A DNA stretch of 64,000 nt from NCBI GenBank assembly GCA_964396655.1, contig CAYNFP010000003.1:82177-146176 (forward strand), read 5' to 3'. Source of the stretch: an uncultured Muribaculaceae bacterium (GTDB taxonomy: Bacteria > Bacillota_I > Bacilli_A > RF39 > UBA660). Shown in pieces: positions 54,713 to 59,181 of this stretch (positions are counted from its first letter, which is position 1; each line of letters opens with the position of its first letter). The notes beneath the pieces are model-generated. The model was not told the origin of the DNA. It made no database searches and was given only the letters and a program-made list of their open reading frames with translations. Position numbers and translations under genes: made by a program.

Positions 54713-55567
54713 CTATTTTAAATCAATTATTGTGATTTCTGATGTATACATTATATCAAATAATTTGAATAATTTAACTTTAGAAAATTTAGTAATTCCT
54801 CTAGATATAATAATATCCATATTTTCAACTTTATGTTTTCCTCTGCAATACTTTGGAAATGGTGTTTTAGAAGGAGAAATTATTCCTCTTCCGTTCTTTT
54901 TAAAATCTAAAAATTCTAAAAAATCAGGTAAAACCCCATTATGCATATGACCACTTAATATTAAATTTATATTATTTGTAATCTCTGGTAATTTTTCATA
55001 ATTATATTTTCTAGTTATTGATACCGGTGAATGAGATATCAATATTTTATAATTATTATTCTCATTAATTACTATTGGATATCTTCTAAATTCATAATGG
55101 AATGCATCTTTTTTTCTATTTCTAAACCATGCACTTGTTGGAGTATAATGAATTATTTCTAAATTATCAAAAATTATTTTATCATTAAATATATAATAAA
55201 CATTTTTAAATTTATTTAATGTATCAAACCATTTTAAATGATCTTGTCTAGTCTCTTTTCTTTTATAATTATATTGTAAATCATGGTTACCTACAGTAAC
55301 AATTGTTTTAGCTATTTTTCCTAGTTCTTTTATAAAATATTCAAGAATCTTTTTAGAATTATCACTCTCTAATACTTTACCATAATCAATTACATCACCT
55401 GCAATTATTATAATGTCCGGTTTAGTAAGTTTAATTTTATTTAATAATAAATCATAAAATTTAATTCTACTTTTTGAATCATGATGTATATCACTTATCA
55501 AACATATTCTTTTATTAATATTTTTATTTGTATCAATATTATATTTTTCTATTCTAAATTTTTCCAT
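54713..55567 (-). CDS. Calcineurin-like metallophosphoesterase
   Basis: All canonical motifs in order: DIHH, GDVIDYG, GNHD, GHMH. Confidence 0.8.
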   Translation of the reverse strand: MEKFRIEKYNIDTNKNINKRICLISDIHHDSKSRIKFYDLLLNKIKLTKPDIIIIAGDVIDYGKVLESDNSKKILEYFIKELGKIAKTIVTVGNHDLQYNYKRKETRQDHLKWFDTLNKFKNVYYIFNDKIIFDNLEIIHYTPTSAWFRNRKKDAFHYEFRRYPIVINENNNYKILISHSPVSITRKYNYEKLPEITNNINLILSGHMHNGVLPDFLEFLDFKKNGRGIISPSKTPFPKYCRGKHKVENMDIIISRGITKFSKVKLFKLFDIMYTSEITIIDLK

Positions 55568-55635
55568 ACAATGTAATTATAACATTTTTAACAAAAAACA
55601 GATATAAAAGTTATATCTGTTTAAATATTGCATTA

Positions 55636-58600
55636 TTATCTTTTGATTGATGGTCCTAATATTTTGGTTAACGCTGCAGCTCCTATAGTTCTTTGTGATG
55701 GAACATGTATTTGTTCTGGCATTTCATCACTAATTACAATTGCTTCTTGATTTAAACATATTTTTATGTGACTTTCAAGTCCAATTCTTTTTATTTCTGG
55801 ATTTTGAATTTCCCAACTATCTAAAAATTCTGGACTTATTAAATCTATAGAAAATCTTCCGTCTTCCCAGAAGGTTTTTATCATACCTCTTGGATGACTA
55901 CTATAACCTAACATTTGTTCAAATCCGCTTTGACCTGCCATACCTGGAACTACTATATATAATTTTTCATTTAAAACAGCCATTTCAAAATTATGCAAAT
56001 GTCCTTGTTCAACAATATCTATACCTCTATATTCTATTCCATGAGATTCAAGCCAATTTGCCATATTCCTACAAGCTGAACCGCCACTACCTTTACCAGG
56101 GACTTTAAAACTATGAGCACCCAAAATTTTATACCCATTTATCTCATTATATGAATAAGAGCCTTCAACAATATCTCCGACACTGTTTATTATATATTCA
56201 GCATATTTTATATCAACATCTACTGCACCCGAAGATTTTTTAAGCTCACTTAATTGCATTTTTAGAATTTCTGTTGGTTTATATCCTTTATGAAGTTTAT
56301 CACTATTTGCTTCATGATTACCATGAACCATTAAAAATGCACTAACATATTTTATTGTGTTTAAACGAATTTTAATAAAATTTCTATATGGTTCTAAACG
56401 TTCTGGTAATGGAATTTCTGAAATTATATTATAGTCAAAATTCCTTTTAATTGAATAAACATAGCCATTTTCTCCATTTCTTTTATCTATTAAATTCATT
56501 CCATATAAATAATCTATTATTAAATTTGATAATTCTTCATCTACAATTAGAATCTTTTCTTTTTCATCTGTTACAAAGGTTCTTGGTGGAATAGCTCCGA
56601 ATGCAACAGATACATACGGTCTTTGAAGTTCGCAAAAATCAACCATCTGTTGATCAACTGACTGAGCAGATGTATGCCTAGATTCGGTTGCATATCTATC
56701 ATAATTCCAGCCTTGAATAAGATCCCCATAATATTTAAAAACATCTGCATTATATCCATACATTGCCAAATCAAGATATTTCAAAAACAATTCTAATCTT
56801 TCTGTTATTGAACCAGTTTGAATATCATTTATATGAGCTTCAACTCTTTTTATTAACGGCTGCCCTGATCTTTGTACTGCTTCTTGTATTTCTCTTGAGC
56901 TTCTCCAACATGGTGTTATTCTAAATATTTCATCTAAGCTTCCACTATAAGTAAAAGAACCGGGGAAATTAAGTCGATTTTGAGGCTGAGTTACACGTTT
57001 GTGTACTGGGTCACTTGGTATCTGCTTTTTATTAGGCATAAAACCTTTTTTTAAATATCTTGAATCATCTGTTAATTGTGGGACATTTATAGCAATTTGT
57101 GCTTGATCTCCTCCTATTACATTTGCTGCCATATAGCCTTGTCTTGCATCAGAAATAACTTGGGGTTTACTTGTTCCTCTAGTTGCTCCAATTCTTGCAT
57201 CTTTTATTCTCTTTAATATGCCGCTATCTGGATTTGCATATTGAGTATCTTTTGAAAAATTAGGATTTGCAACCATATCAATAGATAACCTTTCAGGCTT
57301 TTTATCAAATCTTATTTCTGATTCACTAACAACTTTAAATTCATCCGTATTTCTAAAGTATCTCTCATCTATTAATTTTTCACCATTTTCATCTACTAAA
57401 CCTGCTAAATTTCCTAAAGGTGCCCCGTATTTTATAGCGCTTATATAACTACAAATATCCCCTATACGAGTTTTTCTTTCACCCTTCGAAGTATAATAAG
57501 TTGTTATATCTTTCCCAGAACGTAATAAATATGGTATTAAATCATCGCTTATTATTTCTTTTGCCCAATCAAACTTTTCATCCATATCTTTTCTTGCTAA
57601 AAAATTATATTTTTGTTTTAATTCTTTATAAAAGTATGTATAGAATAATTCGTCTCTAAGATTAAAATCTTCATCTCCTAATTGATAAACAACTTTTATA
57701 CCACTTGCATTTAAATCATCTACTAAAGCTTTGGCAGCTTTAAGTCTTGAACCAAGAGTTGGATATTTAGGGTCTGTTAAATTTCTCCTCTTTGTTTGAT
57801 TTCTTTTATGTTCTGAATATATTAAACTTTGTATAAGTATAGTATCTACTTTATCTATTTTAGCATTAACAATAATGTTATTTAAAGCAACATAATCTGT
57901 GTATATATAACCAAAATTTATACCAGCTATTGATACCACATTTGGTAATCCTTCTAAAGCTTCAATAGGCCTTACACAACTTAATTCTGGCTGGTTTCCC
58001 AATTCTTCTTCAATAAATTCTGCCCCTATTTTTTGGTAATCTGGAATATATAATTCTATGGTTCTACCAAATAAAACTTTGCCAGAACCATCTTCTTTTA
58101 AATGTTCTCTATTTGTTTCAACAAAATATTGTGAATTTTTCTTTAAAAATGAAAAAGCACTCTTTAATCTTCTAATATGTGGTATTACAGCTACATCTAT
58201 AGGAAATTCATTTTGTTTAATACCATCAGATATAATATTTTCTAATCTTAAAATACTTTCTAATTTTGCTAACCCTTCCTCTTTTGATATATCAATATTA
58301 GGTAAAAATTTTATAGTACCAGTACCATCTTTATTAACTAATGATTTAAATCCTTTAAATATTTCCTCATTACATAATATATGTGCATCTTTATTTCTTT
58401 TCATATCTTTAAAAAGATATTCTATATGTTTAGAAAAATTATCTTTTTTAGAAAAATACTCACACATATCTTTTGCAATTTTTTCAAAAAATTCATACAT
58501 TTCAGGATTAAGAGATTTTTTAGCTAATTGCAATAATTGTGATAAATGTTTTTCTTTATCATATTTTTTACCTGAAATGTAAGTTTCTAATTTTGATAAA

Positions 58601-59181
58601 GAAAATTTTTCTTTCAATATATAATTTATATATTCTCTATCTAAATATTTATTTAATATATATTGATCAATTTCTTCTGGACTAGCAGAAACCAATTCTT
58701 TGTTTTCATTTTTAGCTTTTTCAATTAATTTTTCATAATCTTTTAAAGAAAACGCCTTTAAAATATCAATATATGATAATTGAAATATATTAACTAAATA
58801 TTCTTCTTTTGATTCACAACATTCTATTAATAAAGTATTAAAAATTGCATTAATAATATTATTTGGGTTTTTATCAAAAAATATTAATGATGGTTTTGTT
58901 TTTTGTTTGCATACATTTGCAATTGAACCAACTAGACTTGCTGTTTCAAAAAAACCACTTACTTGACCAAGTATAATTGGATATGGAACATCTCTATATT
59001 TTGATGATAAATCTTTAATAGTTGAAGAAAAATTGTCTGATGAAGTTAATTTCATCTTTTCTTCATATTCAAAGCTTAAATCCATTTCTTTACTGTGCCT
59101 TCTCATAAATTCAAGCATATTTTGATTCTTAAGTTCCTTTAATATTTGAGCTTTACTTTTTTTTCTTTCTGATTTTTCCAT
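55636..59181 (-). CDS. Large uncharacterised protein (1181 aa) with C-terminal metallophosphoesterase-like motifs
   Basis: C-terminal VHGNHEANSD and EQGHLHNFE resemble MPP motifs III and V; N-terminal ~900 aa has no recognisable motifs, P-loop or TM. Confidence 0.55.
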   Translation of the reverse strand: MEKSERKKSKAQILKELKNQNMLEFMRRHSKEMDLSFEYEEKMKLTSSDNFSSTIKDLSSKYRDVPYPIILGQVSGFFETASLVGSIANVCKQKTKPSLIFFDKNPNNIINAIFNTLLIECCESKEEYLVNIFQLSYIDILKAFSLKDYEKLIEKAKNENKELVSASPEEIDQYILNKYLDREYINYILKEKFSLSKLETYISGKKYDKEKHLSQLLQLAKKSLNPEMYEFFEKIAKDMCEYFSKKDNFSKHIEYLFKDMKRNKDAHILCNEEIFKGFKSLVNKDGTGTIKFLPNIDISKEEGLAKLESILRLENIISDGIKQNEFPIDVAVIPHIRRLKSAFSFLKKNSQYFVETNREHLKEDGSGKVLFGRTIELYIPDYQKIGAEFIEEELGNQPELSCVRPIEALEGLPNVVSIAGINFGYIYTDYVALNNIIVNAKIDKVDTILIQSLIYSEHKRNQTKRRNLTDPKYPTLGSRLKAAKALVDDLNASGIKVVYQLGDEDFNLRDELFYTYFYKELKQKYNFLARKDMDEKFDWAKEIISDDLIPYLLRSGKDITTYYTSKGERKTRIGDICSYISAIKYGAPLGNLAGLVDENGEKLIDERYFRNTDEFKVVSESEIRFDKKPERLSIDMVANPNFSKDTQYANPDSGILKRIKDARIGATRGTSKPQVISDARQGYMAANVIGGDQAQIAINVPQLTDDSRYLKKGFMPNKKQIPSDPVHKRVTQPQNRLNFPGSFTYSGSLDEIFRITPCWRSSREIQEAVQRSGQPLIKRVEAHINDIQTGSITERLELFLKYLDLAMYGYNADVFKYYGDLIQGWNYDRYATESRHTSAQSVDQQMVDFCELQRPYVSVAFGAIPPRTFVTDEKEKILIVDEELSNLIIDYLYGMNLIDKRNGENGYVYSIKRNFDYNIISEIPLPERLEPYRNFIKIRLNTIKYVSAFLMVHGNHEANSDKLHKGYKPTEILKMQLSELKKSSGAVDVDIKYAEYIINSVGDIVEGSYSYNEINGYKILGAHSFKVPGKGSGGSACRNMANWLESHGIEYRGIDIVEQGHLHNFEMAVLNEKLYIVVPGMAGQSGFEQMLGYSSHPRGMIKTFWEDGRFSIDLISPEFLDSWEIQNPEIKRIGLESHIKICLNQEAIVISDEMPEQIHVPSQRTIGAAALTKILGPSIKR

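Follow-up and report, generated by a model that had tools for sequence, protein, structure and literature searches.

A family of large bacterial proteins combining a degenerate and an apparently active metallophosphoesterase domain

The 1181-aa gene and its locus

A gene encoding a protein of 1181 amino acids (aa) was analyzed in a 64-kb stretch of DNA from contig CAYNFP010000003.1, the whole of which is hereafter referred to as the window. Strong matches to Pfam and NCBIfam models outlined the gene order ftsA-ftsZ, rpsD (plus strand), the 1181-aa open reading frame (ORF), a gene encoding a 284-aa metallophosphoesterase (MPP) and obg-yqeG-yqeH-mutL, confirming the placement between the rpsD/ftsZ region and obg reported in the first-pass annotation of this DNA. 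The two ORFs called there, at 55636-59181 (minus strand, 1181 aa) and 54713-55567 (minus strand, 284 aa), are both present. The larger gene is defined by the following features:

55636..59181, minus strand: 1181-aa gene with a tandem of MPP-type domains, from the ORF list and its translation (stop codon at 55636-55638)
59189..59194, minus strand: AGGAGG ribosome-binding site, 7 nucleotides (nt) 5' of the ATG of the 1181-aa gene, read from the sequence

The G+C content at third codon positions (GC3) of the gene is 0.118, against a window mean of 0.117 +/- 0.027, indicating native composition. Given this native GC3, the AGGAGG site and the existence of homologues, the 1181-aa ORF is a real, conserved and rare gene. 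Its product is among the largest encoded in the window and contains neither a hydrophobic segment (the maximum 19-residue Kyte-Doolittle value is 1.35) nor a Walker-A motif, in agreement with the earlier observation that transmembrane segments and a P-loop are lacking. The protein is cytoplasmic and soluble.

Distribution of the family

When 5.8 billion proteins were searched with a word index, only 11 sequences were retrieved, comprising one identical copy and ten homologues at 39-62% identity, of which nine are full length and the remaining one is an 880-aa, C-terminally truncated protein. All close homologues are unnamed or designated "hypothetical", and their alignment (A1) has a mean column identity of 59%. 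Scanning one genome per GTDB species detected the gene in 11 species represented by metagenome-assembled genomes (MAGs), whose labels read Bacilli, "Mollicutes" or Clostridium sp. CAG:1193; a handful of these species are evidently mislabelled. An exhaustive hidden Markov model (HMM) search against 1.84 billion cluster representatives extended the family to 180 clusters at E<1e-3 (151 at E<1e-10), with relatives mostly 750-1280 aa long, and none of ten family members that were looked up bears an informative name. Two NCBI names assign distant members to Candidatus Levybacteria and Candidatus Daviesbacteria, both of them bacteria of the Candidate Phyla Radiation (CPR). The hosts of the family thus encompass low-GC uncultured Bacilli, CPR bacteria and other metagenomic lineages.

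BLAST clustering outlined two assemblages: group A (32 clusters), containing the clade of the window and relatives that have an N-terminal domain in common, and group B (81 clusters), with a different N-terminus. Two broad alignments, A2 with 51 diverse members and A3 with 46, present mean column identities of 18-19% and underlie the conservation analyses below. The homologues in Clostridium sp. CAG:1193 (L015:7464-9419 and 9562-11028) and in one short MAG contig (L013:36-1364 and 1386-2573) are split into two ORFs, which could reflect a frameshift or pseudogene, or else an assembly error.

An apparently active metallophosphoesterase domain

The first-pass annotation had described the C-terminus as phosphoesterase-like on the strength of HGNHE and GHLH motifs, which are indeed found at aa 953-957 and aa 1060-1063, and the region bears out as a genuine MPP domain by its motifs, by profile-profile alignment and by Foldseek matches to MPP folds. 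The domain and its motifs, referred to the active site of DP1, the small subunit of the archaeal family-D DNA polymerase PolD and its proofreading 3'-5' exonuclease, are located as follows:

55822..56859, minus strand: catalytic MPP domain, DP1-like, aa 775-1120 (from family invariants, hhalign, Pfam and the PDB profile search)
56818..56826, minus strand: MPP motif I, D786-I-Q788, with Gln for the usual His (matches DP1 D360/H362)
56722..56727, minus strand: MPP motif II, G819-D820, the start of a GDxIQGxNY signature (common to DP1, GDvvDGvgiYPG)
56311..56322, minus strand: MPP motif III, G954-N955-H956-E957 (matches DP1 N450/H451)
56113..56115, minus strand: MPP motif IV, H1023, invariant in 51 members (matches DP1 H497)
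55993..56004, minus strand: MPP motif V, G1060-H-L-H1063 (matches DP1 H560/H562)

The five MPP motifs (D-x-Q, GD, GNHE, H and GHxH) occur in canonical order, with the substitution of His by Gln in motif I as the single deviation. The earlier view that motifs I and II do not follow this order proved incorrect, since both N-D786-I-Q788-GS and G819-D820-LIQGWNY precede GNHE, with D786, G819 and D820 invariant in 51 members and Q788 conserved in at least 90%. Across A2 and A3 the invariant columns are G424, D786, G819, D820, G954, N955, H956, H1023 and H1063, joined by G966 in A3. Conservation of at least 90% in both alignments was observed for Q788, G790, S791, Y827, E833, E957, N959, H1061, S1085 and E1088, while for D804 and N826 this level is attained in A2 alone.

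Several comparisons place this region in the MPP superfamily. The family profile of the C-terminal domain aligned with the 284-aa protein, a Pfam-verified MPP, with 94% probability (hhalign, E 1.1e-7, 191 columns), and the Pfam Metallophos model (PF00149) matched 20 of 46 family members (best E 5e-8), the 1181-aa protein itself not being among them. Foldseek searches of the PDB with an AlphaFold2 (AF2) model returned Vps29, PolD DP1, the Pol-alpha B-subunit, Mre11 and LpxH with probabilities of 0.9-1.0 and low TM-scores. The C-terminal motifs are thus part of an MPP fold, an alpha/beta sandwich, and no known housekeeping family was matched. The 1181-aa protein represents an undescribed family within the calcineurin-like MPP superfamily, its C-terminal domain is, to judge from these sequence features, an apparently active metallophosphoesterase, and the protein as a whole is very probably an active metallohydrolase.

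A degenerate duplicate of the catalytic domain

The region upstream of the catalytic domain had been considered devoid of recognizable domains over some 900 aa. This does not hold for aa 405-765, where family profiles and motif columns revealed a degenerate MPP duplicate:

56887..57969, minus strand: pseudo-MPP domain, aa 405-765, an hhalign-detected duplicate of the MPP domain with its metal ligands lost

When family profiles of aa 405-765 and aa 770-1125 were compared with hhalign, they aligned with 92% probability (E 6.3e-7, 264 columns) and with every motif in register. As controls, the N-terminal domain scored 1.4% and 0.1% against the two MPP-type domains, and a reversed C-terminal domain 0.1%. 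In the AF2 model the pseudo-MPP domain follows an MPP-like order of secondary structure (beta1-loop-alpha-beta2-loop-alpha-beta3-loop), and its loops carry the degenerate motifs AGINFG (I), IQS-L (II) and GDED (III), the corresponding columns across the 51 members reading LSE-ILxGN, SG-LVQG and GDDD in group B. The domain also presents strongly conserved non-catalytic motifs, PYxLRxGR and NxxFSxxTxYxxP, together with HKRVTQ in the clade of the window and RxxTxR across the family. The in-register alignment, the negative controls and the degenerate motifs together support an internal MPP duplication as the family's core. Of the two copies, the first, having lost its metal ligands, is predicted to be dead and the second to be live.

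A divergent member of 1249 aa (P0068) retains the N-terminal and pseudo-MPP domains and contains a lysine/glutamate-rich insertion of ~110 aa, probably a coiled coil. In its C-terminal MPP domain, which the family HMM missed, motif I is of the canonical D-x-H type (QGDTH).

Accessory regions and structural model

Three further regions complete the 1181-aa protein:

57982..59181, minus strand: N-terminal domain, aa 1-400 (AF2 model with a predicted local distance difference test score, pLDDT, of 85 and a predicted TM-score, pTM, of 0.86)
56374..56616, minus strand: clade-specific insertion, aa 856-936 (~80 aa), located after motif II and before motif III (family alignment and AF2)
55639..55821, minus strand: C-terminal tail, aa 1121-1181, a low-confidence part of the model with conserved x-R1164-x-[LI] and IGPxI

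The N-terminal domain, which is limited to group A, is modelled as a beta-alpha-beta core into which a large helical segment is inserted. It returned no PDB sequence match and was negative in hhalign against both MPP-type domains, and its one meaningful Foldseek match in the PDB was 6ulo (355 columns, probability 1.0, TM-score 0.47-0.49, E 1.4e-3). A Rossmann fold of the S-adenosylmethionine methyltransferase type was considered for this domain and rejected, the matches (CheR, MnmC2 and UbiG) being short Foldseek hits with probabilities below 0.55 and no sequence support.

The 80-aa insertion folds in the model as a helix, a beta-hairpin and a helix (pLDDT 65-89). It is present in the clade of the window only, and the HMM positions that bracket it (~853 and ~937) abut in P0017-P0033 and in group B. 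An assignment as a winged helix was also rejected, given that only the helix, hairpin and second helix are seen, that Pfam offers no support for the 1181-aa protein and that the winged helix-turn-helix matches are weak and come from single other members.

The motifs of the tail vary by subgroup: [YF]-x-R-x-[LI]...IGPxI in group A, SALQKxLW in one branch of group B and RPxPGT.EY..G..SP[FY]IE in another. These might be docking motifs. Interpretation of QRxLxP or SALQKxLW as a sliding-clamp-binding motif was discarded, as the Gln is not conserved in the clade of the window, where an aromatic residue and an Arg are conserved instead. The model of the whole protein has a pLDDT of 71 and a pTM of 0.56 and is weakest at the active-site loops.

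Nearest relatives of the family

Searched alone, the 1181-aa protein returned no match in Pfam, NCBIfam, PADLOC or the PDB sequences, and a single match among all libraries, to the PHROG family phrog_284 "exonuclease" (E 3.2e-6, aa 949-1112). The same model matched 30 of 46 family members (best E 7e-11), and phrog_7339, "DNA repair exonuclease", matched 16 of 46. With the family profile, the best match in a sequence search of the PDB was DP1 (6knb, E 2.5e-5), the family sequence sDtQiGS...GDiiqGrN-YPgmpnE aligning to SDiHvGS...GDvvDGvgiYPGqynE of DP1; the matches to Vps29 (E ~0.07) and Thermotoga maritima SbcD (E 0.9) were not significant. In NCBIfam, the DP1 models were the most frequent named match (8 of 46 and 3 of 46 members), followed by YfcE (3 of 46) and SbcD (1 of 46, E 1.2e-3). 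A Foldseek search of BFVD likewise returned 17 phage MPPs below 1e-3, down to E 3e-6, some of them automatically named "DNA polymerase II small subunit".

The active site of DP1 is formed by D360, H362, D404, N450, H451, H497, H560 and H562 (PMC10721889). These residues correspond to D786, Q788, D820, N955, H956, H1023, H1061 and H1063 of the 1181-aa protein, so that seven of the eight are conserved in the family and H362 is replaced by Q788. Since three independent libraries (PDB, NCBIfam and PHROG) agree, the nearest known kin of the family would be the DP1-type and phage-type MPP exonucleases.

Genomic context across loci

The neighbourhoods of the gene in its own clade are all different, featuring RNase R in one case, holA and lon in another, and elsewhere Ham1, a sulfatase and OGG, a beta-lactamase-fold gene, or obg and RuvAB. 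Clustering of neighbouring ORFs by blastp, covering 17 loci of close and 35 of distant homologues, identified no universal partner, and none emerged from four further distant loci (L052-L055). The gene therefore works alone, without a conserved partner.

Recurrent neighbours were nonetheless detected among distant members. A divergently transcribed gene encoding an AbrB(MazE)-PhoU fusion lies directly upstream of the family gene in 4-5 independent lineages (L018/L021, L046/L047/L055, L050 and L053), between which the family proteins are 24-35% identical, and is absent from the clade of the window. All these genes are on the minus strand of their loci:

L018:3328-4317, minus strand: AbrB-PhoU gene
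L021:1375-2364, minus strand: AbrB-PhoU gene
L046:1-821, minus strand: AbrB-PhoU gene
L047:2116-3060, minus strand: AbrB-PhoU gene
L050:1496-2440, minus strand: AbrB-PhoU gene
L053:4829-5806, minus strand: AbrB-PhoU gene
L055:204-1148, minus strand: AbrB-PhoU gene

This association may point to phosphate-linked regulation of the family. In the P0116-like lineage the divergent upstream position is occupied by a DUF7347-NUDIX gene, and one of these loci encodes an HD-domain hydrolase downstream:

L022:8632-9303, minus strand: DUF7347-NUDIX gene
L025:7036-7788, minus strand: DUF7347-NUDIX gene
L027:5142-5834, minus strand: DUF7347-NUDIX gene
L039:3451-4146, minus strand: DUF7347-NUDIX gene
L027:8442-9140, plus strand: HD-domain hydrolase gene

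In other distant loci the family gene lies between housekeeping genes, such as dnaN-murD-pgi or glmS. A long ORF, uncalled in the source annotation, adjoins the family gene in L004 (11607-13433, plus strand), L009 (11574-13400, plus strand) and L011 (2679-4004, plus strand), L004 and L009 being the same contig.

Functional interpretation

Taken as a whole, the data are best explained by a nuclease with DP1-like affinity, a proposition whose truth we regard as evenly balanced. Under this proposition, the second MPP copy (aa 775-1120), in which the two-metal site is intact, would provide the only catalytic center of the protein. By homology with DP1, D786, Q788, D820 and H1063 would hold one metal and D820, N955, H1023 and H1061 the other, with H956 as the catalytic residue. 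The reaction would be a Mn2+/Mg2+-dependent hydrolysis of nucleic-acid phosphodiester bonds, performed as an exonuclease or a single-strand endonuclease. The pseudo-MPP domain (aa 405-765) would probably act as a built-in partner or substrate-binding platform, resembling the second subunit of dimeric MPP nucleases, and the N-terminal domain and the 80-aa insertion would be lineage-specific additions, probably involved in targeting or regulation.

We infer the hydrolysis of nucleic acids from the kinship of the family with DP1 and the phage MPP exonucleases and from the precedent of MPPs acting as DNases, namely DP1 (PMC10721889), MPE of Pseudomonas putida (PMC7826289) and mycobacteriophage gp48 (PMC12287305). 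We likewise infer the polarity of the reaction, the part played by the pseudo-domain and the biological process. The nuclease or phosphodiesterase role suggested in the first-pass annotation is reasonable. The catalytic site has all the DP1-equivalent metal and catalytic residues but one His replaced by Gln. Overall, the observations of that annotation were confirmed in part and its interpretation was supported in part.

Several points weigh against a nuclease. The link to DP1 becomes visible only with a broad family profile and falls far below the curated cut-offs of the DP1 models, and the 1181-aa protein by itself is unmatched in Pfam, NCBIfam and PDB sequences. Motif I has Gln in place of His, and the AF2 model, whose Foldseek TM-scores are low, has a pLDDT below 50 at the active-site loops (787-790, 821-843, 955-968, 1024-1034 and 1081-1094). 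MPP chemistry by itself does not fix the substrate, and GNHE is also found in protein phosphatases and nucleotide pyrophosphatases. Finally, the PhoU-type regulators, NUDIX and HD hydrolases that adjoin some distant members fit small-molecule or phosphate metabolism equally well.

A more specific proposal, which we put forward tentatively and consider on balance doubtful, is that the family constitutes a hitherto unrecognized branch, in bacteria, of the phosphodiesterase exonucleases of the DP1 type, to which an inactivated second copy has been fused. It would then operate as a stand-alone nuclease for DNA 3'-end processing, in a proofreading-like capacity, in CPR bacteria and in a clade of low-GC gut Bacilli. 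Until now the DP1 type has been regarded as peculiar to archaeal PolD and, as inactive versions, to the B-subunits of eukaryotic polymerases. If true, the proposal would have implications for how the DP1/B-subunit lineage arose and would add a new nuclease to bacterial DNA replication and repair.

Among the alternatives, the one that best withstands the evidence, though still unlikely, is a small-molecule hydrolase, whether a phosphodiesterase or a pyrophosphatase, with cyclic or linear nucleotides, dinucleotides of the Ap4A type or polyphosphate as substrates, or else a function in phosphate scavenging. Cyclic-nucleotide phosphodiesterases, ApaH, LpxH and YfcE present the same motif set, and YfcE provides the second most frequent NCBIfam match. 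The genomic context is also compatible with this role, as illustrated by the AbrB-PhoU genes, by the NUDIX and HD hydrolases beside other members and by the proximity of the gene to obg in the window and in L005. The nearest named relatives in three libraries (DP1, phrog_284 and phrog_7339) are nevertheless exonucleases, the PhoU association does not extend to the clade of the window, and a length of ~1000 aa with a pseudo-domain and large accessory domains would be atypical of such enzymes.

A stand-alone defence or anti-mobile-element nuclease, constituting a single-gene immune system, appears quite unlikely. It would account for the rare and patchy distribution (11 GTDB-representative species) and the variable neighbourhoods, which include a Fic gene and a WYL regulator in L003, a SocA/Panacea toxin-antitoxin-like gene in L005 and RHS in L001, as well as for the phage-encoded MPPs among the closest relatives. 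Against this, the 1181-aa protein was unmatched in PADLOC-DB v2 even at E<=1, four scans of viral contigs contained no relatives, and tblastn found none in searches of the 1181-aa protein against phages and plasmids or of two distant members against phages. GC3 is native, many loci lie between housekeeping genes (rpsD/obg, dnaN-murD-pgi, glmS, holA/lon) and the gene is present in small CPR genomes. No positive evidence was thus obtained for the role in defence or in nucleotide-signal degradation that had been proposed initially.

A non-catalytic scaffold or a protein phosphatase is improbable. Vps29 and eukaryotic polymerase B-subunits, which are inactive MPPs, are among the Foldseek and PDB matches, and the Gln of motif I might be taken in the same sense. 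The GNHE variant is, in addition, typical of PPP phosphatases. The residues equivalent to seven of the eight active-site residues of DP1, including H956, are however invariant or conserved in at least 90% of members, and such conservation at 18-19% mean identity argues for catalysis. No PPP-family model was matched in Pfam or NCBIfam, and there are active MPPs, Escherichia coli UshA among them, in which Gln is known to bind metal.

The 284-aa neighbour and the chromosomal setting

The gene immediately downstream and the features that separate it from the 1181-aa gene are the following:

55591..55622, minus strand: terminator-like hairpin with a 12-bp AT-rich stem and a U-run, 14 nt past the 1181-aa gene's stop codon, from sequence and fold
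55576..55584, minus strand: TGtTATAAT extended -10-like box, 8 nt before the ATG of the 284-aa gene, read from the sequence
54713..55567, minus strand: 284-aa canonical MPP gene, COG1408/YaeI-like (PF00149 E 5.7e-20), 5 nt upstream of obg

The 284-aa protein is, as previously recognized, a canonical MPP with a complete motif set (DIH, GDVID, GNHD and GHMH), and its matches to LpxG and YaeI are below threshold. The first-pass annotation had proposed that it forms a two-phosphoesterase module with the 1181-aa protein, a very improbable arrangement, given that the two MPP-type genes are indeed neighbours on one strand, 68 nt apart, but are separated by the hairpin and the -10 box, that the 284-aa gene lies 5 nt from obg and that the pairing occurs in none of ~50 other loci. 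The hairpin has a predicted free energy of -10.6 kcal/mol (z -3.9), with 1 of 200 shuffled sequences as stable. The TATAAT box at 55576-55584 was recovered in a promoter scan, but shuffled sequence gives at least as many matches of this kind, so that the evidence is weak. No homologue of the 284-aa protein was found near ~12 distinct close-homologue loci or ~38 distant loci. With a terminator-like hairpin, a -10 box and a 5-nt gap to obg, and with no 284-aa homologue at the other loci, the two genes are best regarded as neighbours by chance, and the 284-aa gene more likely belongs with obg. In the stretch around 50104-54712 on the minus strand, the 284-aa MPP gene, obg, yqeG, yqeH and mutL are separated by gaps of 5-86 nt or overlap (by 8 nt at yqeG/yqeH), which suggests one long transcription unit beginning at the 284-aa MPP gene.

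The window has ~24% G+C, uses the standard code and also contains genes for SpoIVA, a class-A penicillin-binding protein (PBP), IleRS, PheT, PPDK and ComEC. It is part of the chromosome of a spore-forming bacterium of the Firmicute type with low GC. SpoIVA is full length (13922-15400, minus strand), with PBP1 at 6719-9550 and ComEC at 28748-30859, and the lineage, whose relatives are labelled as "Mollicutes" or "Bacilli" MAGs, is apparently walled and spore-forming. The sole Rfam matches within the window are two T-box leaders, at 34703-34893 (minus strand) upstream of ileS (31578-34667) and at 22239-22420 (minus strand) upstream of pheS (21169-22206).

Significance

The MPP superfamily and its chemistry are already known. 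The family, the tandem of a dead and a live MPP domain, the 6ULO-like N-terminal domain and the DP1 affinity in bacteria were neither described in the libraries searched nor found in the literature. The hosts of the family belong to small-genome lineages that are poorly understood and in which large conserved proteins are clues to missing functions, and an affinity to DP1, unexpected for bacteria, provides a testable hypothesis of metal-dependent nuclease activity. If this hypothesis is true, the family would be a new family of bacterial nucleases and would inform the evolution of DP1 and the polymerase B-subunits; if not, it would be one more uncharacterized MPP hydrolase. The significance is moderate, being limited by a function that is deduced and by gene neighbourhoods that, within the clade of the window, share nothing informative.

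Comparison with known systems

The N-terminal 400-aa domain resembles a single known structure, that of an uncharacterized Leptospira interrogans protein (6ULO), from which it differs in having 9% sequence identity and no match at the sequence level; no mention of 6ULO was found in the literature. COG1408/YaeI-type MPPs, exemplified by the 284-aa neighbour, belong to the same superfamily as the catalytic domain, but they are single-domain proteins with a canonical D-x-H and a clear Pfam match, and the 284-aa protein shows neither evolutionary nor genomic linkage to the large family.

The Mre11/SbcD nucleases are also members of this superfamily, employ two-metal chemistry and gave weak local Foldseek matches. 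They function as dimers, an arrangement that the tandem of pseudo-MPP and MPP domains could mimic within one chain. They differ from the family in that sequence support is not significant (SbcD in 1 of 46 members and E 0.9 in the PDB) and no capping domain was recognized, and no SbcC/Rad50 ATPase partner was detected in the window or in ~50 related loci. The phage MPPs, such as the "putative metallophosphatase" of Bacillus phage BSP38, differ in their length of ~250-500 aa and their single MPP domain. Their "exonuclease" label is annotation only, and the family has no tblastn-level similarity to sequenced phages.

The closest comparison is with DP1 (PRK04036; PDB 6knb, 5ihe and 8ppt) of PolD, a polymerase described as exclusively archaeal (PMC10721889). 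No DP1 curated cut-off was reached by any of the 46 members (best E 2.9e-5 on the DP1 models), none of which matched Pfam DNA_pol_E_B (PF04042), and no DP2 partner was present among the ORFs scanned, which were part of those in the 64-kb window, or in the sampled flanks of other loci. DP1 has an OB-fold before its phosphodiesterase domain, whereas the preceding 360 aa in the family are the dead MPP duplicate; the family has Gln for His in motif I, its proteins are 2-3 times longer and its hosts are bacteria (Bacilli and CPR). Judging by its sequence, the 1181-aa protein is not a DP1, as indicated by the sub-threshold scores, the MPP duplicate in place of the OB-fold, the change in motif I and the bacterial hosts. 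What the family and DP1 have in common is the MPP/phosphodiesterase fold, also reflected in a Foldseek match, the ordered set of ligands and a signature comprising S-D-x-[HQ]-x-G-S and G-D-x-x-x-G-x-x-Y-P-G-...-E.

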